Shown here in pieces: positions 35,350 through 63,049 of a stretch of 64,000 bases of DNA. Position numbers and translations under genes: made by a program. The stretch spans positions 47,983-111,982 of the forward strand of contig DATEML010000013.1 in assembly GCA_035275585.1 (NCBI GenBank). The letters are read 5' to 3'. The stretch's first letter is position 1; each line of letters opens with the position of its first letter. The notes under the pieces were generated by a model that saw nothing but the letters and a program-made list of their open reading frames with translations, had not been told where the DNA came from and did not search any database. Origin of the DNA: Steroidobacteraceae bacterium (GTDB lineage: Bacteria > Pseudomonadota > Gammaproteobacteria > Steroidobacterales > Steroidobacteraceae).

Positions 35350-35412
35350 GGGGACATTCCTCGTTCGGAAGTGACATCAGTCACTGTCCGACCGAGGAAT
35401 GTCCCCTTTTTT
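35350..35412 (+). terminator. Long hairpin plus U-tract in the TBDR-1 leader
   Basis: GGGGACATTCCTCG/CGAGGAATGTCCCC 14-bp stem, then TCGGA/TCCGA and AGTGAC/GTCACT, loop ATCA, followed by TTTTTT. Confidence 0.7.
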
Positions 35413-35434
35413 GTTCACGCAGGAGGGCTTCTCG

Positions 35435-42600: not shown

Positions 42601-42690
42601 CCGGCTGTGTTCTGCAACGGCAACACGTTCCCGCAGGTGTACGACACGCTCGGACGCTATGTCTTTGTCGGCCTGACAGCGGACTTCTAA
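39670..42690 (+). CDS. TonB-dependent receptor, copy 2
   Basis: GGAGG RBS; paralog of 35435..38440 over the full length; ends GLTADF. Confidence 0.95.
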   Translation: MSKNNSIRRAVRCALFTSAAAALAAAMPAQAQESSTIQEVVVTGSRIAQPNLTSVSPVTSVGSDQVKIEGVTRVEDLINNLPQAFADFGGNLSNGSTGAATVNLRNLGSQRTLVLVNSRRLMPGDPTQNGAASADLNQIPAALIERVEVLTGGASAVYGADAVAGVVNFIMNDKFEGVRVDAQYSMYQHNNDDDAIANIVRDSGFGLPESNVRDGYTKDITFIAGINTPDGRGNATVYIGYRTLDPITQDRRDFSACALASSDAGDPTSNTFGCGGSGTTARGLFQTYNPADPFDFSPTGTFTVGEDGAIRDFQGSDLYNFAPTNYYQRADERKTAGLFAHYDFSDKASVYTEFMFMDDRTQAQIAPSGAFLGSGQGQPPFFGRYAVNCDNPLLTPSALSTFCGGDAGAGDVLLDIGRRNVEGGGRNDDLRHTSFRGVIGLRGDIAEGWNYDVYGLYGTSLLSENFQNDFSRSRLRKALNAVTGPTGQPVCRVNADADLTNDDPSCVPYQIFGVGSVTPDQLAYLQIPGISKGETVEQILSASVSGDLGQYGWKLPSANTGLGVAFGAEYRSESSELRTDAAYQSNDLAGQGAPTLDTVGQFDVKELFAEARLPLVQGKPFADTLSFEAGYRYSDYDLGFNTDSYKLGLQWAPVSDVMLRGSYQRAVRSPNIQELFLQPRVQLDGVTDPCSNALGETPAASFEECARSGVTAAQYGNILQNPASQYNGLVGGNPDIQPEESDTYSYGFVVTPGFLPGFSFTVDYYDIKVEKLINSLGADFILNQCLTTADPTYCDRVQRAGNGSIWLGDTGFVEDPILNTGSLQITGIDAEANYRFEMGNAGSLGLQFIGTYVDEYMTEPLPGASKYDCAGLFGAVCGTPIPDWRHKLRANWTTPWNMDLSLTWRYIAAVDDDRTSSDPNLSAAIIETDKHLGSRSYFDLTGSYTFSEVGVFSNLTGRLGINNILDKDPPLVGQDTCPAVFCNGNTFPQVYDTLGRYVFVGLTADF

Positions 42691-45908: not shown

Positions 45909-46442
45909 TCATTCGGTCTTCTTCGTCGACTTGCCTTCCATGACCGTCGTCCACTTCGTGCCGTCCTCGGACATGTCCCACTTGTACGTGTACGAAGTCG
46001 GCGAGCTCTCGACCATCGTGTAGCGCGAGTGGAACGGCTTGCCGTTCATCTCGCTCTTCGAGCCGAACGACCAGGTCTTGCCGCTCTTCTGACCTTTCGA
46101 GTAGTCGGCCATCCCGGTGCTGTCGATGCCGTAGTACGTATAGGACTTCTCTGTAGGGCTGTACGCGATGACGCCGAGCGTCGTCATCGAGCCCATCGCA
46201 CCACTCCCCTGTCCGCGGCACACGAGCTGAAAGCCGCCGGCGAACCACTCACACGTGTCGACGCTCGTCATCTTGCCGCCGGGCCCGAACGGGCCGGGCT
46301 TCATCTCGGCTTCGCTGGTCCACTTGCCGGCGAAGTAGCCGAGCGCTTTCTGCTCCGGACCGGGCTTTGGTGCGTCCTGCGCCAGCGCGACGCCGAACGC
46401 CAATAGCATGCTGCTGCCAACTACGATGATCTTCGTTCGCAT
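45909..46442 (-). CDS. DUF1579-like secreted protein
   Basis: GGAGG RBS; signal peptide; PGPEQKALGYFAGKW; CEWFAGG..C; DGTKW. Confidence 0.78.
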   Translation of the reverse strand: MRTKIIVVGSSMLLAFGVALAQDAPKPGPEQKALGYFAGKWTSEAEMKPGPFGPGGKMTSVDTCEWFAGGFQLVCRGQGSGAMGSMTTLGVIAYSPTEKSYTYYGIDSTGMADYSKGQKSGKTWSFGSKSEMNGKPFHSRYTMVESSPTSYTYKWDMSEDGTKWTTVMEGKSTKKTE

Positions 46443-46515
46443 AAGCCCTCCTGATCCCCACTGCGGGTTGGCGAGGGCCGGAGCATAGTCCTGCGGCCGC
46501 GGGCCTGGAAGACGC

Positions 46516-48546
46516 TCAGCGTGCCTGGAAGCGGATCGCCTGGCCGCCGCCCGGCGCCAGCTTCAGCTGCAGGGTGTCGCCGCGGCGGACCGAGCGGCGC
46601 TCGATCGCGATCGCCTGTGGGTGCGTGCGCCAGTCCGCGTTTGCGCCGTCGCGATAGATCTGTGCGCGATATGAGCGATCCGGGTCGAGGAAATCGAGCC
46701 GCAGCTCGAGCGTGCGCGCGTTCTCGTCCGTGATGCTGCCGAGGTACCAGTCGTCGCTGTTGCGATCCTTGCGCACGATGGTGACGTAGTCGCCGACCTC
46801 GCCGTTCGGCACCAATGTCTGCGCCCAGTCGGTCGGCACGTCCTTGATGAACTGGAACGGCGCGGGGAACTTGCGATAGTTCTCCGGCAGGTCGGCCGCC
46901 ATCTGCAGCGGGCTGTACAGCACGACGTAGTTCGCGAGCTGCTTCGCGATCGTCGACTGGATCGGGCGTCCGCCCTTGCCTTTCAGGCTCAGCACGCCCG
47001 GCGTGAAGTCGAACGGGCCGGAGAGCATGCGCGTGAACACCAGGTTCGCTTCGTGCTCGGGCGGGTTCGGCGGATTGCCCCAGGCGTTGTACTCCATGCC
47101 GCGCGCGCCCTCGCGCGCGATCCAGTTCGGATAGGTGCGGCGCAGACCGGTGTCCTTGATCGGTTCGTGCGCCACCACGGCGATGTGGCGCTTCGCTGCT
47201 TCGGTGACGACCTTCAGGTGATGGCGCGACATGACCTGCCCGTCGTGCCATTCGAAATGAATCCGCCCATCCTCGCCCAGCGCCTTGACGCCGCCCGCAT
47301 CGGCGACATAGCCGGTCTTCACGCTGTCGATGCCGAGCCGCTGATACAGGTCGAGCGCGGCCTCGAGCTGCGGCTCGTAGTGCGCGATGTTGGCGGACGT
47401 CTCGTGATGACCGATCAGGTGCACGCCTTTCTTCTTCGCATACTCGGCGAGGCCTTCCAGGTCGAAATCGGGATACGGCTGCGTGAAGCTGAAAGTCTCG
47501 CCATTCGCGAACCAGTCGCCGTCCCAGCCGACGTTCCAGCCTTCCACCAGCACGCCGCGAAAGCCATTTTGCGCGGCGAAGTCGATGTAGCGACGCGTGT
47601 TCGCCGTGGTGGCGCCGTGCTGCGGACCCGACGCCCAGCTCCACACGCCCAGGTGCATCGCCCACCAGATGCCGACGTACTTCGCCGGCTTGACCCAGGA
47701 GACGTCGCCGAGCGCGTTCGGCTCGTTGAGGTTCAGGATGAGGTCCGACGCCATGTACAGCGCGCCGGCGCTGTCGGCGATCATCAGCGTGCGCCACGGT
47801 GTCGTGAATGGCGCGACCCGCCGGACTTTCGCGCCCTGCGACGCCGGCGACAGCACTGCCTTCAACCGCGTCCCGTCTACACGACGCAACCACATCGAGG
47901 AGTAGTCGACCAGCGCGGCCTCGTGAATCGCGATGTGCAGACCCGCGTCGGTGCGGATCGTGAGCGGCGTGTGTGCCTGGGCGACTTCGCTGAGCGGCGT
48001 GCGGTTGTAGAGATACTCGTAACGGTTCCACTCTCCGCCCGGGATCCACCACGCCGTGCCCGGGTCGGCAATCGCGAACTCGGTCAGCTCGTCGCCGATG
48101 TTCACCTCGTGCAGCTGCGGCTGATCGGGAAATTCATAGCGGAACCCGATGCCTTCGTCGAACGCGCGGAACACGACGACGAGAGCGCGCTTCAACGCGG
48201 ACTTCTCCACGAGCCGCACGCGCATCTCGTTGTAGTGATTGCGGACATAGCGCCGCTCGCCCCATGGCTGCTCCCAGGTCTCGTCGAAGCTGCGCGTCTC
48301 CACGCCGTCCCCGACGAAGTTGCGTTCGAGCTTCGGCGCGTCGGTCAGCAGAAATCCCAGGCGCGATTCGCTGACTATTTGCCGCCCTGCCCGCGTCACC
48401 GTGTAGCCGGGGCGTCCCTCCTCGTCGATCGTCACGCTGACGGACAGGATGTTGCCGGGAGAGGTGACTGTGCCGACGGTCGTGGCATCGGCAATGCAAG
48501 CCCAGAGGGAAAAGAAAAGAATCAGAGTCAGGCGCGACGCGGTCAC
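46516..48546 (-). CDS. Glycoside hydrolase family 97 (SusB-like alpha-glucosidase)
   Basis: WEQPWGE, YNEM, FRYEFP, WVKPAKYVGIWW, VEGWN, GHHET, TYPNWIAREGARGME, FTRMLSGPFDFTPG. Confidence 0.93.
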   Translation of the reverse strand: MTASRLTLILFFSLWACIADATTVGTVTSPGNILSVSVTIDEEGRPGYTVTRAGRQIVSESRLGFLLTDAPKLERNFVGDGVETRSFDETWEQPWGERRYVRNHYNEMRVRLVEKSALKRALVVVFRAFDEGIGFRYEFPDQPQLHEVNIGDELTEFAIADPGTAWWIPGGEWNRYEYLYNRTPLSEVAQAHTPLTIRTDAGLHIAIHEAALVDYSSMWLRRVDGTRLKAVLSPASQGAKVRRVAPFTTPWRTLMIADSAGALYMASDLILNLNEPNALGDVSWVKPAKYVGIWWAMHLGVWSWASGPQHGATTANTRRYIDFAAQNGFRGVLVEGWNVGWDGDWFANGETFSFTQPYPDFDLEGLAEYAKKKGVHLIGHHETSANIAHYEPQLEAALDLYQRLGIDSVKTGYVADAGGVKALGEDGRIHFEWHDGQVMSRHHLKVVTEAAKRHIAVVAHEPIKDTGLRRTYPNWIAREGARGMEYNAWGNPPNPPEHEANLVFTRMLSGPFDFTPGVLSLKGKGGRPIQSTIAKQLANYVVLYSPLQMAADLPENYRKFPAPFQFIKDVPTDWAQTLVPNGEVGDYVTIVRKDRNSDDWYLGSITDENARTLELRLDFLDPDRSYRAQIYRDGANADWRTHPQAIAIERRSVRRGDTLQLKLAPGGGQAIRFQAR

Positions 48547-50330
48547 GTTCCGTCTCCAGCGGCGCACACGACGAAGTCCAGCGGCGCGAGCACGACGCGA
48601 TAGGCTCCCGGTGCCACCACATCGCTCTCGCAACGGCCGTACAGCGCGGTGAAACCGCGGGAACGCGCGTCCACCTCCATCGTGGTCGCGATCGGCTGGA
48701 GCGACGTATTGAACGCGATCGCGATCTCGCGACCGGTGGCCGGATCGAGCCGCGATACTGCGAACAGCCCCGGGGAATCGGCAGCGTTGCGCACCACTTG
48801 CCGCCCGCTGCGCAAGGCAGCATTCGCGCGGCGCAGTGCCGACAGTTGAGCGATGGCACGCGCGATGGGATGGTTCAGGTCGAAGTTCGATTGTTGCAGG
48901 TCAGGCTTTCCAATCCTGCGATCTGCGAGGTAGGACGGCGTCTGGCTCGTCATCATGTCCTGGCGCGCGTCCTGGTCGCCGCCGACGCCGGTGAAGCCCT
49001 GCTCGTCGCCGTAGTACACGACGGGAACTCCGCGAAGCGTGAACAGCATCGCGTGCGCCAGCAGCACGCGCTTCAGCACTTCGTCGTCGCTCGCCTGCGG
49101 CAGCGTTTTGCGCACGTAGTACGCGAAGCGTCCTGCGTCATGGTTGCTGATGAATGTCGGCAGCTGCAGCGCCGCCTTCTCGCCGCCCTCGTACAACACG
49201 TCGTCGGCGAACAGACGTGCCAGCTTGTCGGTGCCGGCGTCGCCGGCGACTGTCGCGCGCACCGCGGCCGCGAAAGCGAAGTCGAGCACTGCGGGCAACT
49301 TGGCTTCGCGCGTGTAGCGCGCCAGCAGCGCCGTGTCGATATCCGAAGTCGAAACTTCGCCGAATATGTGAAAGTGCGGGATACCCTGCGCTGCCGCCCG
49401 CTGCAGTATCGCCGGCACGAACGCCTGCCAGAACTCCGCGTTCACATGGCGCGCCGTGTCGATACGGAAACCGTCGACGCCGTACTGATCGATCCAGCGT
49501 CCATAGATCTCGATCATTCCCTGCACGACGCGCGGATTCTCCGTCATCAGGTCGTCGAGCCCGACGAAGTCGCCCATCTCCGAGCTCTCGCCGGCAAACG
49601 TGGAATTGCCGCGGTTGTGATACAGCAGCGGGTCGTTCAGCCACTGCGGCCGCTTGCTGCGCTCTTCGCCGGCCGGCAGGTAGGGCGTGTACGCGAAGTC
49701 GGGCCGCGTCAGCTGCGCAAAATTGTCGCCGGTGAAGCCATCGTTGATCGGCTCGCCTTGCAGCCCGCCGCGGCGCGAATACGGATACTCGGCACGCGAG
49801 CGATAAGGACAGCTGTCCGTCGGGCATTCGCGGTAAGCGATCACGTCGGCCGTGTGGTTGGCGATGATGTCGAGATACACCTTCATGCCGCGGCCGTGGG
49901 CGGCGCGCACGAAAGCCTGCATCTGCGCTTCGTCGCCAAGATGCGGATCGACGCTCGTGAAATCGGTGATCCAGTAGCCGTGATAGCCGGCCGACTCCTG
50001 GCCGGGCGCGCCCTGCACCGGCTTGTTCTTGAACACCGGCGTGAGCCACACGGCAGTCGCACCGAGCGCCTGGATATAGTCGAGCCGCGCCGTGAGCCCC
50101 TGCAGATCGCCGCCGTGGAAGAACGCCTTCGACGTCGGATCGAAGCCGTGCTTCAGGCGCTCGCCACGCAGGCCGCCGCGATCGTTCGCCGGATTGCCGT
50201 TCTCGAAGCGATCGGGCAGCACGAAATAGATGATTTCTTCCGTCTCCGTGCGATCGCGGAAGGCGTCCTGCGCATTTGCAGTACAAGTGAACGCCAGCAA
50301 CAACAGCAGGTAGCGGACGTCAATGCTCAT
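48543..50330 (-). CDS. GH13 alpha-amylase family protein (secreted)
   Basis: IYFVLPDRFENG, YHGYW, DIIANH, GFRID, FGEV, SNHD catalytic regions. Confidence 0.92.
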   Translation of the reverse strand: MSIDVRYLLLLLAFTCTANAQDAFRDRTETEEIIYFVLPDRFENGNPANDRGGLRGERLKHGFDPTSKAFFHGGDLQGLTARLDYIQALGATAVWLTPVFKNKPVQGAPGQESAGYHGYWITDFTSVDPHLGDEAQMQAFVRAAHGRGMKVYLDIIANHTADVIAYRECPTDSCPYRSRAEYPYSRRGGLQGEPINDGFTGDNFAQLTRPDFAYTPYLPAGEERSKRPQWLNDPLLYHNRGNSTFAGESSEMGDFVGLDDLMTENPRVVQGMIEIYGRWIDQYGVDGFRIDTARHVNAEFWQAFVPAILQRAAAQGIPHFHIFGEVSTSDIDTALLARYTREAKLPAVLDFAFAAAVRATVAGDAGTDKLARLFADDVLYEGGEKAALQLPTFISNHDAGRFAYYVRKTLPQASDDEVLKRVLLAHAMLFTLRGVPVVYYGDEQGFTGVGGDQDARQDMMTSQTPSYLADRRIGKPDLQQSNFDLNHPIARAIAQLSALRRANAALRSGRQVVRNAADSPGLFAVSRLDPATGREIAIAFNTSLQPIATTMEVDARSRGFTALYGRCESDVVAPGAYRVVLAPLDFVVCAAGDGT

Positions 50331-51075
50331 TACGATCGACGCCAAGCTCGCGCAGGATCGCGACGCGCAGGTCCTGAACGTGCGGGCTCGCCAACCGGCG
50401 CGGATGCGGGAACGGCACGTCGAAAGTCGCCTGGATTCGCGCCGGGCGCGGCGACAGCACCAGGATGCGGTCGGCGAGGTGAATCGCTTCTTCGACGTCG
50501 TGCGTGATCAGCATCACGGTGTGACGCTCCTTCGCCAGGATCCGCAGCAGCTCGCCGCGCATCCGCAGGCTCATGAGCGCATCGAGCGCCGCAAACGGCT
50601 CGTCCATGTAGAGGATCTCGGGCTTTACCACGAGCGCGCGCGCCAGCTCGGCGCGTTTCAGCATTCCACCCGACAACTCGTGCGGATAGCTGCCCTCGAA
50701 ACCTTTCAGTCCGACGATCGCAGCGTAGGTGTCCGCGAGCTCGGCCTTGTTCGCCGGCGCATGGCCGTTGAGACCGAACATCAGATTCTCGCGCACCGTG
50801 AGCCACGGAAAGACCGAGCCGTGCTGCGAGATGAGAATGCCCTTCGAGTCCGGTTTCGCGCGCGGCACGCCGTCGATGACGATCGAGCCGGCATCCGGGT
50901 GCACGAAACCCGCCATCATGTGCATCAGCGTCGTCTTGCCGCAGCCCGATGGGCCCACGATGGCGACGAATTCACCGTCGCGAACCGTGAAGCTCACGTC
51001 CGCGACGACCGACAGGGATCCCTGGTCCGACTCGAAGCTCTTCTTCAGGTCACGGACTTCGATCTTAGTGCGCAT
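50320..51075 (-). CDS. ABC transporter ATP-binding protein, NitT/TauT/SsuB type
   Basis: GPSGCGKT, FPWLTVREN, LSGGM, MDEPFAALDA, ITHDVEEA. Confidence 0.95.
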   Translation of the reverse strand: MRTKIEVRDLKKSFESDQGSLSVVADVSFTVRDGEFVAIVGPSGCGKTTLMHMMAGFVHPDAGSIVIDGVPRAKPDSKGILISQHGSVFPWLTVRENLMFGLNGHAPANKAELADTYAAIVGLKGFEGSYPHELSGGMLKRAELARALVVKPEILYMDEPFAALDALMSLRMRGELLRILAKERHTVMLITHDVEEAIHLADRILVLSPRPARIQATFDVPFPHPRRLASPHVQDLRVAILRELGVDRNEH

Positions 51076-51823
51076 AGCGCCACCTGACCCGATCGATGCG
51101 TTCCAGCATGCGCATGAACCCGTCCAGCGACAACCCGATCAGACCGATGATGACCATGCCGGCGACGACCAGATCGTAGCGATTCCCGGCGTTGCGCGAA
51201 TCCATGATCATGTAACCCAGACCCGAGTGCAGCGCAATCATCTCGGCGGCGACGACGACCAGCCAGGCGACGCCGAGGCCGATCCTCATGCCGACGATGA
51301 CCTGCGGCAGAACCGCTGGAATCACGACCTGCGTGAACAGCGTGTGGCGTGAGACGCCGAAGTTCTCCGCCGCTCGCAGATAACGCTTTTCGATCGTGTG
51401 CACGCCGACGGTCGTCTGCACGACCATCGGAAACACCGATGAGATGAAGATCAGGTAGATCGGCGAGGCGTTGCCGACGCCGAACCAGAGGATGGCGATT
51501 GGAATCCAGGCGATCGGCGAGATCGGACGCAGGATCTGAAAAATAGGATTCAGCGTGCTGTAAGCGCCTCGCACCCAACCCATCCACAGGCCGAGCGGCA
51601 CGGCGACGCACACCGCCAGCAGGAAGCCCGTCCCGACCCGCATGAGCGACGCGCCGATGTGCCGGTACAGCGAGCCATCCCGCAGCAACTCGAACGTACC
51701 GCTGACGACGTCCCACGGAGTCGGGAAGATCACGCTGCGCGTGACGACGACCGTTGTCCACCACGTTGCAATCAGCGCGGCGATCACGGCCAGCGACGGC
51801 AGGCTTTCTTTGATTCGCTTCAT
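51065..51823 (-). CDS. ABC transporter permease, NitT/TauT/SsuC type
   Basis: LRPISPIAWIPIAILWFG, EAA-like RAAENFG, VAAEMI, GLGYMI. Confidence 0.95.
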   Translation of the reverse strand: MKRIKESLPSLAVIAALIATWWTTVVVTRSVIFPTPWDVVSGTFELLRDGSLYRHIGASLMRVGTGFLLAVCVAVPLGLWMGWVRGAYSTLNPIFQILRPISPIAWIPIAILWFGVGNASPIYLIFISSVFPMVVQTTVGVHTIEKRYLRAAENFGVSRHTLFTQVVIPAVLPQVIVGMRIGLGVAWLVVVAAEMIALHSGLGYMIMDSRNAGNRYDLVVAGMVIIGLIGLSLDGFMRMLERIDRVRWRYAH

Positions 51824-52266
51824 CCGAGCTCACGCATCAGTTCGCGCACGCGCCAGTGGATTCTCGCCCAGGGCGTCACCGGGTATGGCTCGACGATCAC
51901 ACTCATCTGTCCGCTCGCATGCGCCGTGCACGCGAACTGATACTCGGACGCCTGCTCGAACGGCAGCCGGAAGCTCTGTCCGGGCATCATGAGTGCGGGA
52001 CCGAAGATCTGCGGCACATCGTCCAGGTTCCTCAACAGCAGAATATCCCGAATGCCCAGCGTCAGGCGGATCTCGTCCGGCAGGATGCCGATCTTCTCCC
52101 CCGACATCCGGCGGGCCCACGTTCCCTTCGGAATCTCGAAAATCTCTTCCCGCGACGCGCTGGCCTGCACGCGATCGATCGGCGTCAGTCCCGCCCAGCC
52201 CAGCACGGCGATTGCGCCGGCGACGCCGAGCCACAACAACGCGCGCCACAGCGAACGCGGACGCAT
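51820..52266 (-). CDS. Membrane-anchored cupredoxin-like protein
   Basis: N-terminal TM; RNLDDVPQ, PGQS, YQFACTAHASGQM (C-x2-H-x4-M); lies in the 51820..52908 track ORF; start ATG 52266 or GTG 52272. Confidence 0.7.
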   Translation of the reverse strand: MRPRSLWRALLWLGVAGAIAVLGWAGLTPIDRVQASASREEIFEIPKGTWARRMSGEKIGILPDEIRLTLGIRDILLLRNLDDVPQIFGPALMMPGQSFRLPFEQASEYQFACTAHASGQMSVIVEPYPVTPWARIHWRVRELMRELG

Positions 52267-52268
52267 GG

Positions 52269-52850
52269 TCACTCTTGCAGCAGCATCTTCAGATCGTGCA
52301 CGTAGTCGTCGGGACCGTGTCCATAGGGCATCAGTGCCCGAAGGCTGCCGCTGCGATCGATCAGAAAGACGAAAGAGGAATGTGCCACCGTATAGGTGCT
52401 GCCCTGAGTTTTCTTCTCGGCGAAGACGCCATAGTCCTTGCGCACGGCGGCCAGCCGCTCGGCTGCGCCGGTGCCGCCGACGAAAGTCGGATCGAACGCT
52501 CCCAGATAGTTCTTCATGCGCTCTGCGACATCGCGCTCCGGATCGACCGTGACGTAGACGACTTGCACGTCTGCCGCGGCGGAGCCGAGCTTGCGGCGTG
52601 CCTGAGCCAGCGTCGCGAGCGTGACCGGGCACACTTCCGTACACGAAGTGAAGCCGAAGCCGAGCAGCACGACTTTGCCGTTGAAGCGACTCAGAGTCAG
52701 CGCGCGGCCGTCGGAGCCCTGCAGCGAGAAATCGGGCGCCGGTCGCGGCGGGCTGAAGACACCGGCCTTGAGCGCCGGCGCGTCTGCGCCCACGGCTGCA
52801 GCGACGAACAGCAGCGACAGCAGCAGTGCATGGGCGAGAAGCGATTTCAT
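52269..52850 (-). CDS. SCO1/SenC family copper chaperone
   Basis: FGFTSCTEVCP (CxxxC), VTVDPERD, VAHSSFVFLID (His ligand). Confidence 0.93.
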   Translation of the reverse strand: MKSLLAHALLLSLLFVAAAVGADAPALKAGVFSPPRPAPDFSLQGSDGRALTLSRFNGKVVLLGFGFTSCTEVCPVTLATLAQARRKLGSAAADVQVVYVTVDPERDVAERMKNYLGAFDPTFVGGTGAAERLAAVRKDYGVFAEKKTQGSTYTVAHSSFVFLIDRSGSLRALMPYGHGPDDYVHDLKMLLQE

Positions 52851-53875
52851 AACGGGATGACGGCCGGACGCGCCGCGCGCGCGAAACGATCGTCCACATA
52901 TTTTTCATAAGCGACCGGTTTTTTGATCGTGCCGGCCTGGAGCGACAGCTGCATGAGCTCGTCGAACTCGCTGCGGATCATGCGCAGATCGCCATAGGTC
53001 ACGCGATCGGTCGGATTCTGCATCACGAAGCGGAGGATCTTCGGGTCCTGATTGAAGAAGCGGGGGCCGGCGGCGATCTGAATCGCCTTCTCGCGGTTCG
53101 CAGGCTGCTGATCGAGCCACACGCCCGCTCCCAGAACCTGGTTGACGAGATCCTGCACCATCGCCGGATTCTCCGCGATCAGCTCCTCGCGCACCGTCAG
53201 TACGCAGCAGATGTACTTCGGCCATTCGTCGCGGGTCATGCGCAAGGGCCGGGCGTATCCGGCCTCCTGCGCGGCGGCGCCAAACGGTTCACCGGTGCAA
53301 TAGGCATCGACGGCCTTCGCGTACAGCGCCGCGGGCATGTCGGGCGGCGGCATCTCGACGATCTCCAGCTCATCGACGCGCATGTTCTCCTCGGCGAGCA
53401 TGCGGCGCAGAAACAGGAAATCGACGGCGAACCGGCTGGGAATGGCGATGCGCTTGCCGGCGAGCTGGCGGAACGTCTGGTACGGGGACTCGGTGCGAAC
53501 CATGATCACCGCGCCCGACCGATGGCCGAGCGAAACGATCTTGACCGGGATGCCCTTGTCCGCCAGGTCCATCACGAGCGGCGCCAGCATGTAGCCGGCC
53601 TGGATGCGGCCGGCCATGAGCGACTCCTTGATTTCCGGCCAGCCGTTGTACTTGTTGTACTCGTACGCGAACTTGGGGCTCGCGGCTGGGGCCGTGCCGT
53701 TGACCGTCGTCTTTCCCACGCACGCAACCGGCAGGGTGAGATTGCAGGTGACGGGCAGCCCGCCCACGACCAGCGAGTTCGCGTCTCTGTGGGTGCACGC
53801 GAAGGTGCCCAGAGGCAGTGCGACTGCCGCCAGGCTCTGGATCGCGTGCCTGCGCGAAATGAGGTATCCGCTCAC
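52847..53875 (-). CDS. ABC substrate-binding lipoprotein, NrtA/CmpA/SsuA-like, Cys-rich
   Basis: SRRH + TFAC Tat-lipoprotein leader; GWPEIKESLMAG, LAPL, GHRSG, GKRIAIP, MPPPDM, GEPF, ICCV. Confidence 0.88.
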   Translation of the reverse strand: MSGYLISRRHAIQSLAAVALPLGTFACTHRDANSLVVGGLPVTCNLTLPVACVGKTTVNGTAPAASPKFAYEYNKYNGWPEIKESLMAGRIQAGYMLAPLVMDLADKGIPVKIVSLGHRSGAVIMVRTESPYQTFRQLAGKRIAIPSRFAVDFLFLRRMLAEENMRVDELEIVEMPPPDMPAALYAKAVDAYCTGEPFGAAAQEAGYARPLRMTRDEWPKYICCVLTVREELIAENPAMVQDLVNQVLGAGVWLDQQPANREKAIQIAAGPRFFNQDPKILRFVMQNPTDRVTYGDLRMIRSEFDELMQLSLQAGTIKKPVAYEKYVDDRFARAARPAVIPL

Positions 53876-53911
53876 CCTGCCCTCGAGATGCCGATGCGTT
53901 CGGTCTGGCCG

Positions 53912-55414
53912 CTATGGTATCGCAGCCTTCGAAGGCGTACCGGGCATCTCGACAACCGGGTTCGCGACCCGCAGCACGGCCAGCCCGGCGATGAACAGGC
54001 TCACACCGCCGATGACCAGCGCGTAAATCGGTTGCCCGTGGGCGAACGCCCGCAACAGGAACCCGAGCACGCTGGCGGCCAGCAATTGCGGAATGACGAT
54101 GAAGAAATTGAAGATGCCCATGTAGATGCCCATCTTGGCGGCGGGCAGGTTGTTGGACAGCAGTGCGTAGGGAAGGGAGACGATCGAAGCCCACGCGAAT
54201 CCGACGCCGACCATGGCGACGATCAGCCAGTGCGGATCGCGAATCAGCAGGAAGGACAGGAGCCCGGCAGCGCCGAGCCAAAGATTGATCAGGTGACTGG
54301 TGCGCAGGCCGAAGCGCCGCACCAGCAGCGGAATGACAACGGCGGCAACGGCCGCAAAGCCGCTGTAGGACGCAAACAGCACGCCCACCCAGTTCGCCCC
54401 TTCGTTGTACCTCGCCGATTGCGGATCAGTCGTGCCGAAATGGACCTCGGTGACAGCAAGCGTGGTGTAGATCCACATCGCGAACAGAGCGAACCACGAG
54501 AAGAACTGCACGACCGCCAGGCGTCGCATCGCCGGCGGCATCTCATGCAGGTCCGCCACGATGGCGGTGAATGCGTTGCGCGTATGCCAGATGCTGAGAA
54601 TCAGCAACGCAATGCCATATGCCAGCAGTAGTCCAGCCAGCAAGTAGAGCTCTGCCTCGAGGCGGAAGCTGCGGATCACCACCAGCGCAACCGCACCAGC
54701 CGCGAACCACAGCCAACCATCGCGGCGCGCTTTGCCCACGTTGATCGGCGTATCGCCCGTCGCGTTGGCATCGTCGAAGCTGTTCAATTGTGCCGGCGGA
54801 TACTCGCGCGTGCTGAAGACCGTCCACCCGACGGCGAGGAACAGGATCGTTCCACCCGCGTAGAAGGCGTACTTCACCGTATCCGGAATCCCGCCGGGCT
54901 CAGCACTGTTCTCAACGCCCGACGCCGCGAGCAGCCAGGGCAGAAGACTCGCCACGACCGCGCCGATGCCGATGAAGAAGCTCTGCATCGCATAGCCCGT
55001 CGGCCGTTGCCGCGGCGAGAGCTGATCGCCGACGAACGCGCGGAACGGTTCCATCGAAATGTTGAGCGATGCATCGAGCATCCACAGCAGTCCCGCGGCG
55101 ATCCACAGCGACGGCGAATTCGGCATCGCGAACAGCGCTAGCGTAGTCAGCACTGCGCCGACCAGAAAATACGGCCGGCGGCGGCCGAGGCGATTCCAGG
55201 TGCGGTCCGAGTAGTAGCCGACGATGGGCTGCACGATCAGTCCGGTCAGCGGCGCGGCGATCCAGAGAATCGGAATGTCCTCGACCCGTGCTCCGAGCGT
55301 CTGGAAGATGCGGCTGACATTGGCATTCTGTAGCGCGAAGCCGAACTGGATTCCGAGGAATCCGAAACACATGTTCCAGATCTGCCAGAACGAGACCTGC
55401 GGCTTGGCAGTCAT
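53912..55414 (-). CDS. MFS maltose/sucrose-type transporter (MalY/SUC1-like)
   Basis: WQIWNMCFGFLGIQFGFALQ, GRRRPY, NISMEPFRAFVGD, MGIYMGIFNFFIVIPQ. Confidence 0.92.
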   Translation of the reverse strand: MTAKPQVSFWQIWNMCFGFLGIQFGFALQNANVSRIFQTLGARVEDIPILWIAAPLTGLIVQPIVGYYSDRTWNRLGRRRPYFLVGAVLTTLALFAMPNSPSLWIAAGLLWMLDASLNISMEPFRAFVGDQLSPRQRPTGYAMQSFFIGIGAVVASLLPWLLAASGVENSAEPGGIPDTVKYAFYAGGTILFLAVGWTVFSTREYPPAQLNSFDDANATGDTPINVGKARRDGWLWFAAGAVALVVIRSFRLEAELYLLAGLLLAYGIALLILSIWHTRNAFTAIVADLHEMPPAMRRLAVVQFFSWFALFAMWIYTTLAVTEVHFGTTDPQSARYNEGANWVGVLFASYSGFAAVAAVVIPLLVRRFGLRTSHLINLWLGAAGLLSFLLIRDPHWLIVAMVGVGFAWASIVSLPYALLSNNLPAAKMGIYMGIFNFFIVIPQLLAASVLGFLLRAFAHGQPIYALVIGGVSLFIAGLAVLRVANPVVEMPGTPSKAAIP

Positions 55415-55418
55415 GGCG

Positions 55419-56933
55419 TCATGCAGCCGCAGGCGCGGCGGCGCAGTTGCGAGCGATGAAATCCGCGTGGTCGGGAAGCTGTTGCGTCGCATGGGCAATC
55501 AGCCCGCGCAGGTCGCGCAAGTATCCATTCCGGTCGGCAGGCGACACGGCCTCGACAAATGGATGCGCAGCTCGCGGCCGCACGCCCTGCCCCCACAGCA
55601 CCTGCAGCCAGCTCGTCAGCTGGAACAGATCGTCGGACGCGCAGAAGATGCCCGCCGTCTCGCGGAACAACTCGATGCGGTGTCGCAGGGAATCGGGGAT
55701 CGACATGGTTCGACAGGCGTCCCAGAACGGCTCGCCGCGGCGATTGTTGGCGTGGTAATGCAGGATGATGAAGTCACGGATGTACTCGTATTCCGCTGCC
55801 GCCGCGCGGTTGAACTCCTTGCGCCGCTCCTCGCAGTCGCCACGGTGCGGAAACAGCAGGATCAGCCGTTGAATCGTCACCTGGATGAGATGGATCGCCG
55901 TCGACTCGAGCGGCTCCAGGAATCCGCTCGCGAGGCCCATGCACACGACGTTTCGATTCCACAACTGCTTGCGGCGCCCGGTCGTGAACCGGATCAGCCG
56001 CGGCTCGGCGAGCGCTTCGCCATCGAGGCCAGAGACCAGCAGCTCGCGCGCGCGCTCGTCACTCACGTAAGAGGAGCAGTAGACGTGGCCGTTACCAGTG
56101 CGGTGCTGCAAGGGAATACGCCACTGCCACCCGGCTTCGAGCGCAGTGGAACGTGTGTGGGGCAAGAGCGGGCTCGTGCGCCGTGACGGGAGCGCCCACG
56201 CGCGATCGCAGGGCAGCCAATGCGACCACTCCTCGTAGCCTGTGCGGAGTGCCTGCTCAATCAGCAGGCCGCGAAAACCCGTGCAATCGATGAAGAAGTC
56301 CGCCGCGAGCTCGCGTCCGTCGGCCAGCCGCAAGGCACGCACGTCGCCACTCTCCGGCTCGAGCAGGACCTCGGCGATGGTGCCATCCACCCTGCGCACG
56401 CCGAGCCCCTGTGCCAGGCGCGACAGATAGGCCGCGTAGAGCGAAGCGTCGAAGTGGAAGGCCCACGTCAGCCCGGCAAGAGGCGTCTCGACGATGCGAT
56501 CCGTTCGCGCGAACCGCGCCTGCTTCGCGGCGAGCCAGTTGAAGCTGTAATCCCACAGCGAGCCCGCGCTTGCCTGCGCCTGATCGCGCAACCAGTAATG
56601 GTGAAAAGGGATGTAGGCGAGGTCGCGACCGACCGGCCCGAAGGCATGCATGTACACATGCCCCTTCTCCCACCAGTCGACGAACTCGATGCCGAGCTTG
56701 AACGTGCCCTGCGTCTGCCGCAGGAAATCGTCTTCGTCGATGCGCAGCAGCTTGTTGAACAGCGCGATCGCCGGGATCGTCGCCTCGCCGACGCCGATGA
56801 TGCCGATCTCGGAGGACTCTACCAGCGTGATGGAGAGTCGTGGCCCGAGCACGCGCGCCAGGGCGGCCGCCGCCATCCACCCGGCGGTGCCGCCTCCAGC
56901 GATGACGACCGATCTGATTTCCTGATCAACCAC
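55419..56933 (-). CDS. Tryptophan halogenase family flavoprotein
   Basis: GGGTAG, GVGEAT, TFKLGI (catalytic Lys position), FIDCTG, WQWRIP (WxWxIP), FLEPLEST. Confidence 0.92.
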   Translation of the reverse strand: MVDQEIRSVVIAGGGTAGWMAAAALARVLGPRLSITLVESSEIGIIGVGEATIPAIALFNKLLRIDEDDFLRQTQGTFKLGIEFVDWWEKGHVYMHAFGPVGRDLAYIPFHHYWLRDQAQASAGSLWDYSFNWLAAKQARFARTDRIVETPLAGLTWAFHFDASLYAAYLSRLAQGLGVRRVDGTIAEVLLEPESGDVRALRLADGRELAADFFIDCTGFRGLLIEQALRTGYEEWSHWLPCDRAWALPSRRTSPLLPHTRSTALEAGWQWRIPLQHRTGNGHVYCSSYVSDERARELLVSGLDGEALAEPRLIRFTTGRRKQLWNRNVVCMGLASGFLEPLESTAIHLIQVTIQRLILLFPHRGDCEERRKEFNRAAAAEYEYIRDFIILHYHANNRRGEPFWDACRTMSIPDSLRHRIELFRETAGIFCASDDLFQLTSWLQVLWGQGVRPRAAHPFVEAVSPADRNGYLRDLRGLIAHATQQLPDHADFIARNCAAAPAAA

Positions 56934-56939
56934 GCTCGC

Positions 56940-59780
56940 CTAGAACTTGTAGGTCACGGCGAACGAGTATACCGCCCCGTACTCCTGGTACTTGATCACG
57001 TTGTAGGTCGGATCGTCCACGTTGTTCAGCACGAACGGCTCGTCGGTCAGGTTCGTCCCGGAGACACTCAGGCTCAAGCCCTTCATCATGCCTTCCTGGA
57101 ACTCATAGCCGACCTGCGCATCCAGCAGCGACTCGGCGCCCACGTTCTTGAGCGTCAGGCTCGAGTCGAACTCCGGCACTTCGCCGATGAAATCGCCGCG
57201 ATAGCGGTTGCTCACGCGCGCAGAGAAGCCGGCCTTTTCGAAGTACAGCGTGCTATTGACCACCTCGTCCGACAGGCCCGGCACGGCCGTCTCGACTCCG
57301 TTGATGTCGATCTGGGAGTCGTTCACAGCGCCGCTGATGATGAAGCCGAAGCCATCGAGCGTCTGCGAGAAGATCGACAGCGGCAACGAGAGCGTCAGCT
57401 CAGCGCCTCTTATGTAGCCGCCGCTGCCGTTCACCTTGACCGTCGAAACGCCGGTGCGATTCGCATCCGCCTGCGTGTAGCCGGTGTTCGGATCGTCGGG
57501 CGAGTTCTGGCCCGGCAGCAGCACGCCTTCGAAGCTCTGCAGGACCGAGCTGTTGAAGATGTAGGTCGTCAGGTTCTTGTAATAGGCAGCCAGCGAGACG
57601 TATGCCTGATCACCGAAGTATTTCTCGAGCGACAGATCGAAGGTGTTCGCCTTCCACGGCTTCAGCTCCGGATTGCCGCCGCCCGTGCGTCGCCAGTACA
57701 GCAGTTGCCCGTTGACGTTTTCCGGAACGGCGCTATCGGGCACTACGGTGTAGCCCGCGCCGCCAGCCAGATCATCCATCCGTGGCCGCGCTACGGTGAT
57801 GGCTGCTCCGAACCGCAACTTCATGTCGTGCGGCAGCTGCAGTGCGAGGTTCAGACTCGGCAGCACATCGGTGTACTTGTCACCCGAGGTGACGATCGAC
57901 ACGCTCTGCTCGATCCCTTGGGAGGCGTCCGGGGGAGAGAAATAGCTGATGTCCGAGGATTGATCGGCCGTAACGCTTTGCACGCCGATGTTGCCTCGCA
58001 ACGGCAATGAGCCGATCGCGGTATCGATCCCGACCTTCACGAATGCGGTCGTGAGCTTCTCGGTCACCTGCCAATCGTTGGTGACGGCGCTCTGGCGATC
58101 TCCATTGCCCACGGCCGGGTTCGGATCCAGGAAGGCATCGACCGGCTGCCAGAATCCGGCGTGATACAACGCGATCGCGTCGTAACCGATCATGCCGTGC
58201 GGACTGCCGAAGAACGACGTATTGGTGGTCCCGGTGCGGAATCCTTCCGGCACGACGGCGTGAGAAATGTCGCCGGGCAGGTACAGGATGCTCTGGAAGT
58301 TGTCCTTCGACTTCACGCGCTCGGCGTAATTCGCGCCGAACGTCACGCCATCGAGGAAACTGACGTCGAGCTTGCGCGAGGCCGCCAGCCGGACCGCCTT
58401 GATCTCGTCCTCGATCTCGGGGTTGCCGACGAAGCCGGAGCGGCGCGGGCCGCCGCCCCAGCCGCCTGGATCGGTCAGGAACACCGTGTTGTAGTCGCTG
58501 TAATCGAGCGTCGGGGTGAAATGCGTGATGCCGTCGGCGTCGGTCGTGAAGGAAATCGAGTCGACCTGCGGCAGGAAATTCGGATCGTTGTTCGTGCCCG
58601 TGCCCGCCGTCGATTCCAGGCGCAGATCTTCGCGCTTGACGCGCGACCAGCTCAGATCGCCGTTCACGCTCCAGTTCTCGTTGATCTCGAATTGCGTGTT
58701 CCAGCCGATCGAGTCGACGTCCGCGTTACGGTCGTTGTTGTAATTTTCGATCACCACGAACGGTACGTTCGCGAACGTGCCCGATTGCACGCGGCCATTC
58801 ACGACCGGTCCGGGATTCGAGAGCGTCGCTCCCGCCCAGATCGTGCCGAACTCGATGCGCTGGATCGTCTGCAGCTCCTGGAAATCGGAGTGGTAGGCAT
58901 CGACGACCATGTGCAGCCGATCGTTCGGTTGGAACTCGAACACGCCCAGGTAGGCCTTGCGCTCGTAGAAGGACGATTGCACGCCGTCCTTGTCGCCGCC
59001 GATGACCAGACCGCCCGGAACCTCCGGGTAACCCCACGGCTCGCGCGTCTGCGCCTGATAGGGAGTCTTGTTGTATGCGACTCCGAGCGCGATGCCCACT
59101 GTGTTGTCGCGGAACTGGTCGATGTAGGTGAGGTTCGCGCGATCGCCGGCGCGGTCCAGCCCCGGGATGTTGGCGTCTTGCTCGTTGTACTCGTGACGAT
59201 AGGTCGCCGCCACGCGGCGCTCGTCGTACACGAGAGGATGTACCGTCGCGATGTCCGTCGTGCCCGCGATGCCCTGGTACGCCATGCCGGCGTCGGGAGT
59301 CTTGTAAATCTTGACCTGAGTCACGAGCTCCGACGGATATTGGTCGAACTCGACCGTCCGGTTGTCGTTCGTCGACGCCTGCTCGCGGCCGTTGAACGTC
59401 GTGACGGTGAAGTCAGGGCCGAGGCCACGGATCGAAAGCGTCTGCGCGCGGCCGTTGGTGCGCTGCGCAGCCAGGCCCGGCAGGCGCGCGATCGATTCGG
59501 CGATGGAGGAATCGGGAAGCTTGCCGATGTCCTCCGCCGACACCACTTCGACGATCGAGTCGTCGTTCTTCTTGACGGCGATCGAATCCTCGATGCTCTT
59601 GCGGATACCGGTGACGATGACCTCTTCGATGTTCCCGGAGGCCCCTGGGGTCTCTTGCGCAAGAGCGGCGCCGCTGCAGGTCACCAGAAAAATCGCGCAA
59701 CCCGCGGTCGCACTGATCTCGCGCTGCGAACGACGCTGCAGCGACTGGGTGCGATGACCCTTCCTCTTTGAAGTCTTCAC
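56940..59780 (-). CDS. TonB-dependent receptor, maltodextrin (MalA-like)
   Basis: EVIVTGIRKS, AEDIGKLPD, IRGL, VEFDQYPSEL, KTPDA; C-terminal Phe; PUL context. Confidence 0.92.
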   Translation of the reverse strand: MKTSKRKGHRTQSLQRRSQREISATAGCAIFLVTCSGAALAQETPGASGNIEEVIVTGIRKSIEDSIAVKKNDDSIVEVVSAEDIGKLPDSSIAESIARLPGLAAQRTNGRAQTLSIRGLGPDFTVTTFNGREQASTNDNRTVEFDQYPSELVTQVKIYKTPDAGMAYQGIAGTTDIATVHPLVYDERRVAATYRHEYNEQDANIPGLDRAGDRANLTYIDQFRDNTVGIALGVAYNKTPYQAQTREPWGYPEVPGGLVIGGDKDGVQSSFYERKAYLGVFEFQPNDRLHMVVDAYHSDFQELQTIQRIEFGTIWAGATLSNPGPVVNGRVQSGTFANVPFVVIENYNNDRNADVDSIGWNTQFEINENWSVNGDLSWSRVKREDLRLESTAGTGTNNDPNFLPQVDSISFTTDADGITHFTPTLDYSDYNTVFLTDPGGWGGGPRRSGFVGNPEIEDEIKAVRLAASRKLDVSFLDGVTFGANYAERVKSKDNFQSILYLPGDISHAVVPEGFRTGTTNTSFFGSPHGMIGYDAIALYHAGFWQPVDAFLDPNPAVGNGDRQSAVTNDWQVTEKLTTAFVKVGIDTAIGSLPLRGNIGVQSVTADQSSDISYFSPPDASQGIEQSVSIVTSGDKYTDVLPSLNLALQLPHDMKLRFGAAITVARPRMDDLAGGAGYTVVPDSAVPENVNGQLLYWRRTGGGNPELKPWKANTFDLSLEKYFGDQAYVSLAAYYKNLTTYIFNSSVLQSFEGVLLPGQNSPDDPNTGYTQADANRTGVSTVKVNGSGGYIRGAELTLSLPLSIFSQTLDGFGFIISGAVNDSQIDINGVETAVPGLSDEVVNSTLYFEKAGFSARVSNRYRGDFIGEVPEFDSSLTLKNVGAESLLDAQVGYEFQEGMMKGLSLSVSGTNLTDEPFVLNNVDDPTYNVIKYQEYGAVYSFAVTYKF

Positions 59781-59894
59781 GCGATCCCCTCCTGACTATT
59801 TATCCCGCGCGGCCAGTTCGAGCAGTGCGCGAGTAACGGTTCTCGAAATTTCTCGTACAAGGATGTCGGCAGCGGCAGTCAAATGGCAATCTCA

Positions 59895-59908
59895 TGCATA
59901 CGTATTCA
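59895..59908. promoter_or_regulatory. LacI-type operator, copy 1
   Basis: TGCATACGTATTCA near-palindrome with central CG, upstream of the TBDR; identical copy at 63023. Confidence 0.8.
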
Positions 59909-59923
59909 CGCATAATCCGTTTC

Positions 59924-61336
59924 TCAGTCGGCCCGCGACACGCGGCTGAAAACCCTGAATTCCCACGCAGCGAGAGCCACCGCTGGCAGCGTCGCCGACG
60001 CCGGCGCAGCCGCGCGCGAACCTGGCGTGATCTCGCGATATTCGCCCGCTGCGATTTCCACGGTGCCCGCGTAGTTCTGGGATGACAGATTGACCACGAC
60101 TACGAGCGTCTCGCCCGCGCCCGCGCGCTCATAACTGAGCACGCGCTGTTCGTCGTCATTGCGCAGCCACCGCACTGCACCGCGTGTGAACGCTGGATGC
60201 GTGCGTCGCAGCGCCGCGAGCGCCTGGTAATAAGGTGTTACCTGCGTGCGTCGCTCCGCCATTTCCCAGGCGATCGGAGCTCGCTCGAACAGCGCTGGCG
60301 CCGTCGATTCGGTGGTGTCTCCCACCTCCATGCCGTTGTAGAGCAGCGGCACGCCATCCAGCGTGAACATGACCGCAGAAGCTGCGAGCGCGGCCGGCAA
60401 GCCGAACTGTCCCGTGGCGCGGAGCTGGTCGTGGTTGTCGGAAAATCGCAGACGCAAGGCGCCGCGCGGATAGCGCGCCTCGGCGCGCTCCCACACTTCG
60501 CGCACCCCCGAAGCGGGTGCTCGCCCGGAAAGCGCAGCGCTCATCGCGTGATAGAAATCCCAGGCGTAGTCGATGTCGAATGCGCGGGCCAGCAGCGCCG
60601 GTTCGTCGGCCTCGGCCATGAACGCAAGTCCAGGACGGACGCGGTCGAGCTGCGGTCGCAGGGATTCCCAGAAATCACGCGGCACGCCGATCGCGTAGTC
60701 GCAGCGGAAGCCGTCGAGACGATAGTCGCGCAGCCAGCGCACCAGCATTGCGCTCATGTATTGACGCAGCGCCGGATTGGAATAGTCGAGCTGCGCGACG
60801 TCCACCCAGTCCGGATTCGGCGGCACGATGTGGCCGGCACCGTCGTGTCGGAACCAGTCAGGGTGTTGCTCGATCAGCATCGAATCCCACGCTGTGTGGT
60901 TGGCGACGATGTCGATGAACACCTTCATGTCGCGGCGGTGCGCAGCGTCGACGAGTTGTTTCAGGTCCTCGGCAGTGCCGTAGTCCGGATTGATCGCATC
61001 GTAGTCGCGGACTGCGTAGGGGCTGCCGAGCGTGCCCTTGGCCTTCAGCTTCCCCAGCGGATGGATGGGCATCAGCCAGATGACGCTCACGCCGAGCTCC
61101 TTCAGGCGGTCGAGCTGCGCGGTGACGCCCTTGAAATTTCCCTGCGGCGAGAATGCGCGCGGGAACACTTCGTAGATCACGGCGTCGCGAAGCCAGTCAG
61201 GGCTTTGGCGCGCCGCCGGCTGAGCGTTGCCCGCATCTGCTGCGCGTGCAAGCGGTATCGCGACGAGCGCCGCGACGACCAGGCAGACGAGCAACGCGCA
61301 GACGCGCGCGGCAGTCCGATACAGATTCAAGCGCAT
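59924..61336 (-). CDS. GH13 alpha-amylase family protein (secreted)
   Basis: IYEVFPRAF, YAVRDY, DIVANH, GFRCD, MAEA, SDNHD. Confidence 0.92.
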   Translation of the reverse strand: MRLNLYRTAARVCALLVCLVVAALVAIPLARAADAGNAQPAARQSPDWLRDAVIYEVFPRAFSPQGNFKGVTAQLDRLKELGVSVIWLMPIHPLGKLKAKGTLGSPYAVRDYDAINPDYGTAEDLKQLVDAAHRRDMKVFIDIVANHTAWDSMLIEQHPDWFRHDGAGHIVPPNPDWVDVAQLDYSNPALRQYMSAMLVRWLRDYRLDGFRCDYAIGVPRDFWESLRPQLDRVRPGLAFMAEADEPALLARAFDIDYAWDFYHAMSAALSGRAPASGVREVWERAEARYPRGALRLRFSDNHDQLRATGQFGLPAALAASAVMFTLDGVPLLYNGMEVGDTTESTAPALFERAPIAWEMAERRTQVTPYYQALAALRRTHPAFTRGAVRWLRNDDEQRVLSYERAGAGETLVVVVNLSSQNYAGTVEIAAGEYREITPGSRAAAPASATLPAVALAAWEFRVFSRVSRAD

Positions 61337-62961: not shown

Positions 62962-63022
62962 GTTCTCGTTCCCCGTGGCCGGCGTGCAGCTTAACGGCAG
63001 CGCCTATCGGGCAACGAGAGCT

Positions 63023-63036
63023 TGCATACGTATTCA
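63023..63036. promoter_or_regulatory. LacI-type operator, copy 2
   Basis: TTGCATACGTATTCAA, upstream of the alpha-glucosidase. Confidence 0.8.
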
Positions 63037-63049
63037 ATGCCGGAAGACT

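Follow-up and report, generated by a model that had tools for sequence, protein, structure and literature searches.

A 64,000-nt stretch of the genome of a Steroidobacteraceae bacterium (assembly GCA_035275585.1, contig DATEML010000013.1, positions 47,983 to 111,982; hereafter the window, whose own numbering is used below) contains a compact five-gene module that combines an ATP-binding cassette (ABC) importer of the NitT/TauT type with a copper chaperone of the SCO1/SenC family (SCO) and a membrane-anchored cupredoxin-fold protein (CUP). We propose, tentatively and at somewhat less than an even chance, that this module carries out chaperone-assisted, probably reductive, import of Cu(I). Copper import is favoured because SCO looks canonical, because CUP belongs to a family with a copper-type loop that is linked to SCO and to the chaperone PCuAC, because the substrate-binding protein (SBP) is richer in potential thiolate ligands than its relatives, because this SBP stands where PCuAC stands in related loci, and because a copper receptor gene adjoins the module in a Cellvibrio genome.

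Architecture of the module

The five open reading frames (ORFs) all lie on the minus strand, between positions 50320 and 53875, and follow one another in the order SBP-SCO-CUP-permease-ATPase:

52847-53875, minus strand: SBP, with a twin-arginine translocation (Tat) signal and an NMT1_2 domain, 342 aa
52269-52850, minus strand: SCO, periplasmic SCO1/SenC copper chaperone, 193 aa
51820-52266, minus strand: CUP, membrane-anchored cupredoxin-fold protein, 148 aa
51065-51823, minus strand: type I ABC permease, NitT/TauT-like, 252 aa
50320-51075, minus strand: ABC ATPase, 251 aa

An earlier note on this DNA had described these genes as overlapping or nearly so at every junction, and this held when we reread coordinates and junctions from the sequence: SBP and SCO overlap by 4 nt, CUP and permease by 4 nt (ATGA) and permease and ATPase by 11 nt; SCO and CUP are separated by 2 nt, or overlap by 4 nt if CUP starts at an alternative in-frame GTG at 52272. 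An NMT1-type SBP, a BPD_transp_1 permease and an ABC ATPase together make this a NitT/TauT-family importer. Among NCBIfam models, its three transport proteins come closest to nitrate, taurine, sulfonate and Sao systems, in every case below the curated cutoff, and no CalT (major facilitator superfamily, MFS) or CopD domain was detected by Pfam in the module proteins.

Conservation of the gene order

We scanned one genome per GTDB species for CUP and called the neighbouring genes by tblastn with the window proteins, which yielded 20 loci from Steroidobacteraceae, Burkholderiales, Lysobacterales, Cellvibrionaceae, other Gammaproteobacteria and Acidobacteriia, that is, from four bacterial orders plus Acidobacteriia and from two phyla. 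The SCO gene lies directly upstream of the CUP gene in 20/20 loci, the SBP gene lies upstream of SCO in all 18 loci with sufficient contig, and the permease gene lies downstream of CUP in 18 loci, followed by the ATPase gene where the contig allows (17 loci). The co-occurrence survey that the earlier note had called for thus came out clearly in its favour. Identity to the window proteins ranges from 67 to 84% for SBP, 51 to 79% for SCO, 52 to 82% for CUP, 77 to 89% for the permease and 64 to 90% for the ATPase.

All-against-all clustering of the ORFs of 21 loci revealed no conserved flanking partner except a GH1 gene in close Steroidobacteraceae relatives. The two Acidobacteriia loci (L019 4396-7248 and L020 2406-5255) keep the SBP-SCO-CUP trio; there, the trio is followed by a small CxxCH-like ORF and a gene for a Cupredoxin_1 domain protein. 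Because the flanks vary and the Acidobacteriia keep the trio alone, the five genes form a self-contained unit, of which SBP-SCO-CUP is the most constant core.

These results bear on the simplest alternative, namely that an ordinary sulfonate or nitrate importer and two inserted copper genes are mere chance neighbours. The window itself would fit such a view, since its flanks are carbohydrate genes and no copper enzyme is near. The synteny survey contradicts it: the arrangement is not due to chance, because the order recurs in 20 loci with differing flanks, in several orders and two phyla. In addition, the SBP reaches none of the equivalog cutoffs for sulfonate, taurine or nitrate proteins. We therefore regard chance association as highly improbable.

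SCO and the CUP family

The SCO protein is a clear member of the SCO1/SenC family (PF02630, 1.9e-39, 135.2 bits compared to a gathering cutoff of 22.8). Its C70-x3-C74 motif and H157 are kept in 20/20 module orthologues, and the closest solved structure is that of ScoI (Blr1131) from Bradyrhizobium japonicum (E 1.8e-28), with which the CxxxC motif and the His align. Inspection of the N-terminus points to a cleavable Sec-type signal peptide. SCO is thus a canonical putative copper chaperone with intact copper ligands.

CUP is less easily classified. It matches Pfam Copper-bind (PF00127) with an E value of 0.0058 and 17.5 bits, below the 21.2 gathering threshold, and has no NCBIfam match; among 32 diverse members of its family, Pfam detects three, weakly (E<0.01). 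The family has neither a Pfam nor an NCBIfam model. It is large: clusters at 90% identity include 6834 homologues (E<=1e-3), most of them unnamed proteins from soil metagenomes and the named ones from Steroidobacteraceae, and 442 matches are found among 50%-identity cluster representatives. Plasmid records gave no match to CUP, and a metagenome scan with one CUP protein gave three short loci.

An AlphaFold2 model of CUP, computed with the 32 diverse members as input (pLDDT 93.3), comprises an N-terminal transmembrane helix (residues 4-27), a beta-sandwich (40-126) and a C-terminal amphipathic helix (132-147). When this model was compared with the PDB using Foldseek, amicyanin, the Nitrosopumilus purple cupredoxin, a Cupredoxin_1 protein of B. 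anthracis, CuA domains and CupA (4F2E) were all retrieved with probability 1.0, the target-normalised TM-score being 0.52-0.64 for the small single-domain cupredoxins and ~0.4-0.45 for CuA domains. The model and these matches confirm the cupredoxin fold of CUP. In the model, its copper-type loop, C113-x2-H116-x4-M121, occurs where strand 7 ends and strand 8 begins, the location found in true cupredoxins; the loop aligns with the Cys-His copper loop of amicyanin. The position of the first His ligand is occupied by Gln86, which follows an invariant N80-x-D82 motif. In a set of 120 close homologues, C113, H116 and M121 are invariant and Q86 is kept in 119; C113 is the sole cysteine of CUP. With Gln in place of the first His ligand and a Copper-bind score below threshold, CUP is not a classical type 1 cupredoxin. 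The family nonetheless descends from real copper proteins, because the commonest ligand patterns among distant representatives are QCHM, QCHL and HCH[L/M/I].

Gene context also connects the family with copper. Distant CUP homologues directly follow SCO and PCuAC genes in six independent loci (L022, L024, L026, L031, L032 and L033), and the SCO of the L022 triad, which is preceded by an MFS gene and followed by a YtkA gene, is 47% identical to the SCO of the window. The SBP of the module occupies the position held in these triads by PCuAC, a Cu(I) chaperone. Another CUP homologue follows a cytochrome c gene; several family representatives lie on contigs too short for gene context. Taken together, the independent gene arrangements suggest that the CUP family is tied to SCO-based copper traffic.

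One further locus has a composition of its own. In L023 (103-8903), a CUP homologue belongs to a cluster made of nosZ, an unknown gene, a nosD/F fusion and nosY, followed by genes for a dihaem cytochrome c, SCO and a double PCuAC. No NosL domain is listed in this locus, and these genes may replace NosL there.

The properties of CUP raise the question of whether it is the end user of the copper rather than an intermediate. CUP would then work as a membrane-bound redox protein metallated by SCO, with the SBP as copper source, and the ABC system would import an ordinary NitT/TauT anion and be only co-regulated. SCO proteins do metallate membrane-anchored cupredoxin domains (CuA of Cox2), and some distant CUP members have a full His/Cys/His/Met set and lie beside c-type cytochromes and NosZ. 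Such a role would, however, explain neither the cysteines that are specific to the module SBP (see below) nor why the SBP stays with SCO and CUP in the loci devoid of permease and ATPase, and no redox partner is conserved in the module. We consider it quite improbable.

A putative cysteine-rich site in the binding protein

The SBP belongs to Pfam NMT1_2 (4.5e-29), and its best NCBIfam scores are all below cutoff: 115 for SsuA_fam (cutoff 163.5), 52 for SaoX (300) and 35 for TauA (304). Its N-terminus carries a twin-arginine motif, present in the consensus, and a lipobox cysteine, C27, found in most sequences. The closest solved structure is the S. aureus protein 3UN6 (E 1.9e-29 when searched with the single sequence, 1.2e-67 when searched with a profile). 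This protein has been described as zinc-binding (PMC13592312), and the SBPs from operons for clade B Ni-dependent carbon monoxide dehydrogenase (Ni-CODH) have it as their nearest structural relative (PMC6344411; PMC13592312).

Residues C44, H118, C193, C223 and C224 are kept in 18/18 module SBPs, and C52 in 17/18. In the alignment, the module SBP and 3UN6 share the GH118 motif and the C223-C224 pair. They differ in the strand-1 loop, where 3UN6 and a Ruminococcus clade B protein have a His (ITH) and the module SBP has Cys44. The module SBP further adds C52 and C193, the latter being otherwise common only to the Ruminococcus (R. albus) protein. A parallel is provided by SaoX, whose cysteines 50, 192, 224 and 225 converge in the cleft of an AlphaFold model (bioRxiv 10.1101/2022.07.06.499078) and whose strand-1 motif NNCDH aligns with the C44 position. 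By homology, C44, C52, H118, C193, C223 and C224 would form one thiolate-rich site in the cleft.

Plasmid records contain only distant relatives of the SBP (24-29% identity), in other types of operon. Three of these, from alphaproteobacterial plasmids (L028, L029 and L030), keep the His and the Cys-Cys pair and have an Asp at position 44; they belong to ATPase-SBP-permease operons beside acyl-CoA-dehydrogenase-like genes, with an OsmC gene in L029 and L030, a sulfurtransferase gene in L030 and, in L028, a gene of the carboxymuconolactone decarboxylase family instead. Their sequences suggest a wider, uncharacterised branch of SBPs with a metal site.

Such a site could also serve a thiophilic cargo other than copper (Zn, Ni, Co, Cd, an organometallic compound or a reactive sulfur species). 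SCO would then act as a thiol-disulfide reductase and CUP would pass electrons, so that the five free cysteines of the SBP stay reduced in the oxidising periplasm. Tat export, which would protect the cysteines of the SBP by exporting it in a folded state, fits this idea, as does the fact that SCO also matches AhpC-TSA/Redoxin and TlpA-like models. Moreover, the ABC components are near those of the Sao system, proposed to handle organometallic substrates (bioRxiv 10.1101/2022.07.06.499078), 3UN6 binds zinc, and nickel import has been proposed for the transporters of clade B CODH operons (PMC6344411). On the other side, H157 of SCO is invariant and its closest structure is that of a proven copper chaperone, CUP retains a Cys/His/Met copper loop and comes from a family linked with PCuAC and nos genes, and the module encodes no electron source of the CcdA/DsbD kind. 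We judge this explanation unlikely, though less so than a role of CUP as end user.

Regulation and an outer-membrane receptor in other genomes

In five loci, an ATAG-N7-CTAT dyad, i.e. a T-N11-A box of the LysR type, precedes the SBP start by 79-226 bp and occurs at no other place in these 9-12 kb loci (L009 847-974, L010 4250-4264, L015 4133-4147, L016 4062-4156 and L017 1773-1861). In L009 and L017, the gene for a LysR regulator is divergent from the module, its best match being CynR, below cutoff. Neither the dyad nor a divergent CynR-like LysR gene is present in the window. In L014, a LysR-like N-terminus (MTLTELSYVVALAQEQHFGR, ~4180-4276) lies directly upstream of the SBP gene in the same orientation, perhaps as a remnant or as the product of an assembly join.

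Cellvibrio sp. UBA7661 provides a link to the outer membrane. A gene for a TonB-dependent copper receptor (L016 1916-4063, minus strand; TIGR01778, 727 bits, cutoff 472) is transcribed divergently from the module, and two of the dyads described above lie in the intergenic region that they share.

Proposed copper import and its main alternative

The features of the five proteins are consistent with the following pathway. Copper would enter the periplasm, in at least one genome through the adjacent OprC/NosA-type TonB-dependent receptor, and would be taken up by the soluble periplasmic SCO at its CxxxC and His site. CUP, with Gln86, Cys113, His116 and Met121, would act with SCO as a relay, or in a one-electron step that yields Cu(I), or both. 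Cu(I) would then be transferred to the lipoprotein SBP, whose Tat export in a folded state would protect its cysteines and whose cleft would present five Cys and one His, and the SBP would dock on the permease/ATPase so that copper, bare or with a small ligand, reaches the cytoplasm, where it could feed cuproenzyme assembly routes, as with CcoA. The direction of copper flow, the reduction step and copper as the transported species are what we infer here.

Our confidence in copper import is limited by the lack of a thiophilic path through the permease, by a His/Cys-Cys site inherited from SBPs that probably serve small molecules, by LysR control of a kind typical of anion systems and by the occurrence of the trio on its own in Acidobacteriia. 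Several observations weigh against it, beginning with the permease. This protein (BPD_transp_1, 1.2e-21) scores best in NCBIfam with SaoP (186 bits, cutoff 295), NtrB (158, cutoff 209) and TauC, below cutoffs. Where SaoP reads SMVUAEF it reads VVVAAEM, so that V191/A192 are at or next to the position of the selenocysteine gate; compared with non-copper relatives, it shows no module-specific cluster of Cys or Met. Two of its histidines, H55 and H142, are conserved across the module. The ATPase (ABC_tran, 9.5e-30) lacks a C-terminal regulatory domain and has SaoA (197 bits, cutoff 360), NtrCD and TauB as its best matches, below cutoffs. A tight thiolate Cu(I) site would, in addition, make release to a type I permease hard. 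The His/Cys-Cys site itself is ancestral to a wider SBP branch associated with clade B CODH and organosulfur-type enzymes, and in this branch the metal may be a cofactor rather than the cargo (PMC13592312). LysR control is usual for NitT/TauT operons for small anions and is not that of known copper regulons. A copper receptor gene is adjacent in 1/20 loci only, no permease or ATPase gene was found within 6 kb in either Acidobacteriia locus, and a search of sequencing runs recovered the sequence only from DNA metagenomes of soil and rhizosphere, with no RNA.

Several of these points favour the main alternative, in which copper or zinc is a cofactor of the SBP. SCO and CUP would load this metal, much as SCO and PCuAC build CuA, and the transporter would import a small ligand able to coordinate it, for instance a sulfur, cyanide/cyanate-type or other small anionic species. 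There is a precedent for such a metal in a related receptor: the bicarbonate-binding CmpA uses bound Ca2+ to help bind bicarbonate. The lack of a thiophilic gate in the permease and the presence of CynR-like LysR regulators or dyads upstream of several loci, as in NitT/TauT anion operons, argue in the same direction, and so does the fact that the His and the Cys-Cys pair are common to SBPs from operons for cytoplasmic enzymes, either clade B CODH or those with acyl-CoA-dehydrogenase-like, OsmC and sulfurtransferase genes (PMC13592312). Against this view, no ligand-using enzyme is conserved beside the module, few coordination positions would stay open to a ligand in the presence of three additional cysteines, and the replacement of PCuAC by the SBP, like the Cellvibrio copper receptor, points to copper traffic. 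On balance, a cofactor role is doubtful, yet it is the alternative to copper import that we take most seriously.

The earlier note had suggested that SCO, the cupredoxin and the SBP constitute a metal-handling unit that feeds the importer. This interpretation is partly supported. The idea of such a unit is strengthened by the putative thiolate-rich site of the SBP, by the links of CUP with SCO and PCuAC and by the Cellvibrio receptor; CUP lacks the first His of the classical type 1 set, and the permease lacks a thiophilic gate.

Surroundings of the module in the window

The module is embedded in a long minus-strand locus of the maltodextrin-type carbohydrate class (45909-63997), which includes the following genes in addition to the module:

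63050-63997, minus strand: LacI regulator
56940-59780, minus strand: TonB-Xanth-Caul receptor
55419-56933, minus strand: tryptophan-halogenase-like gene
53912-55498, minus strand: GPH sucrose-type MFS carrier
48543-50345, minus strand: alpha-amylase
46516-48633, minus strand: GH97
45909-46442, minus strand: DUF1579

The module is closely packed against its neighbours: the SBP gene starts 36 bp after the end of the MFS gene, and at the other side the stop of the ATPase gene overlaps the start of the alpha-amylase gene. A scan for sigma-70 promoters and terminators between 46 and 60.5 kb gave nothing beyond the shuffled expectation, and an Rfam scan of the whole window gave no match.

The statement in the earlier note that no oxidase, nitrite reductase or nos gene lies near was borne out for the larger ORFs with a high GC content at third codon positions that were scanned (29/31): none encodes such a protein or a known copper regulator. 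No further Sao genes are present in the window, nor are homologues of PCuAC, YtkA, OprC, cytochrome c or Cupredoxin_1; the loci of the module contain, from this set, only OprC (L016) and Cupredoxin_1 (L019/L020).

Three candidates for additional copper functions in the window were considered and rejected. The adjacent MFS protein is of the GPH sucrose type and not a CcoA-like copper carrier, the two-component system at 21-23 kb resembles EnvZ/OmpR rather than CopRS, and the TonB receptors of the window were dismissed as copper receptors. Two of the TonB-dependent receptors are large (~1000 aa; 35399-38440 and 39670-42690), lie upstream of the carbohydrate locus and match no specific NCBIfam type.

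A carbohydrate neighbourhood is also seen in other Steroidobacteraceae, where the module lies beside loci comprising GH1, LacI, MFS, TonB-dependent receptor, halogenase and SapC genes (L036, L038) or after a GH97 gene (L004). A link between this recurrent neighbourhood and copper-dependent polysaccharide enzymes is pure speculation.

Relation to known systems and significance

The closest functional parallel is the delivery of copper to CuA by SCO and PCuAC (ScoI/PcuC of Bradyrhizobium, Sco1/PCuAC of Thermus). As in the module, a canonical SCO is combined with a membrane-anchored partner of cupredoxin fold, and the sister loci of the CUP family have the order SCO-PCuAC-CUP. The module differs in that it has neither PCuAC nor an oxidase, an ABC SBP being in the partner position, and in that CUP has a putative mononuclear Q/C/H/M site with a single Cys, compared to the two-Cys binuclear motif of CuA. 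CupA of Streptococcus pneumoniae is likewise a membrane-anchored Cu(I) chaperone of cupredoxin fold that works with a transporter, CopA; by contrast, this transporter is an exporter, and the CupA site is a Cys/Met binuclear one. The nos machinery (NosL-NosDFY-NosZ) couples an ABC system to periplasmic copper delivery, and one CUP homologue belongs to a nos cluster, but its ABC complex, NosDFY, is of the exporter type and has no classical SBP.

With regard to the transport proteins, the SBPs of the 3UN6 and clade B Ni-CODH type resemble that of the module in His118, in Cys223-Cys224 and in the ABC architecture of their systems. The module is distinguished by Cys44 in place of the first His, by C52 and C193, by the SCO and CUP genes between those for SBP and permease, and by the absence of CODH. 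Among NCBIfam models, the SAO system (SaoX/SaoP/SaoA) ranks first for the permease and the ATPase and second for the SBP, and SaoX too has a CC motif and further cleft cysteines, suggesting a soft-metal ligand. All these scores are, however, far below cutoffs, the gate of the module permease has no selenocysteine or Cys, neither a MerB-like lyase nor any other Sao gene accompanies the module, and the hosts differ, the module being found in aerobic soil Proteobacteria and Sao in anaerobes.

As for copper import proper, the role that we propose for the module is that of the MFS proteins CcoA/CalT and of the CopCD and YcnJ-YcnI systems, namely to bring periplasmic copper across the inner membrane for cuproenzyme assembly (PMC7558416). 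These proteins show no sequence relationship to the module, which would be ATP-driven and SBP-dependent, with SCO and a cupredoxin as accessories. To judge from these comparisons, the module belongs to none of the systems considered beyond the broad SCO and NitT/TauT families. In a 2020 review, the inner-membrane copper importers named are limited to CcoA-type MFS proteins and, putatively, CopCD/YcnJ, with the remark that others likely exist (PMC7558416); a survey of the beta-proteobacterial copper proteome reports only a statistical association of cupredoxins with SenC (PMC6769254). Our literature search found no description of a copper-linked NitT/TauT transporter or of an SBP-dependent copper importer. 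The module may represent the first SBP-dependent ABC importer for ionic copper, in which SCO and a 'QCHM' CUP capture and reduce the metal and load a Cys5His SBP, and thereby a long-missing high-affinity route; we put this claim forward as possible rather than probable.

How copper crosses the bacterial inner membrane is poorly known, and the module offers a concrete and widespread candidate whose parts are small and easily expressed. If the cofactor reading were correct, the module would represent a new way of ligand recognition by an ABC receptor and could throw light on the S. aureus protein 3UN6 and on the unexplained transporters encoded in clade B CODH operons. If it does import copper, the substrates of the NitT/TauT family of ABC importers would include a soft metal in addition to anions, an ABC binding protein would join the clients of SCO, CUP would define a new cupredoxin family, and many soil Proteobacteria and Acidobacteria would have in this route the high-affinity importer of copper across the inner membrane that has long been missing.

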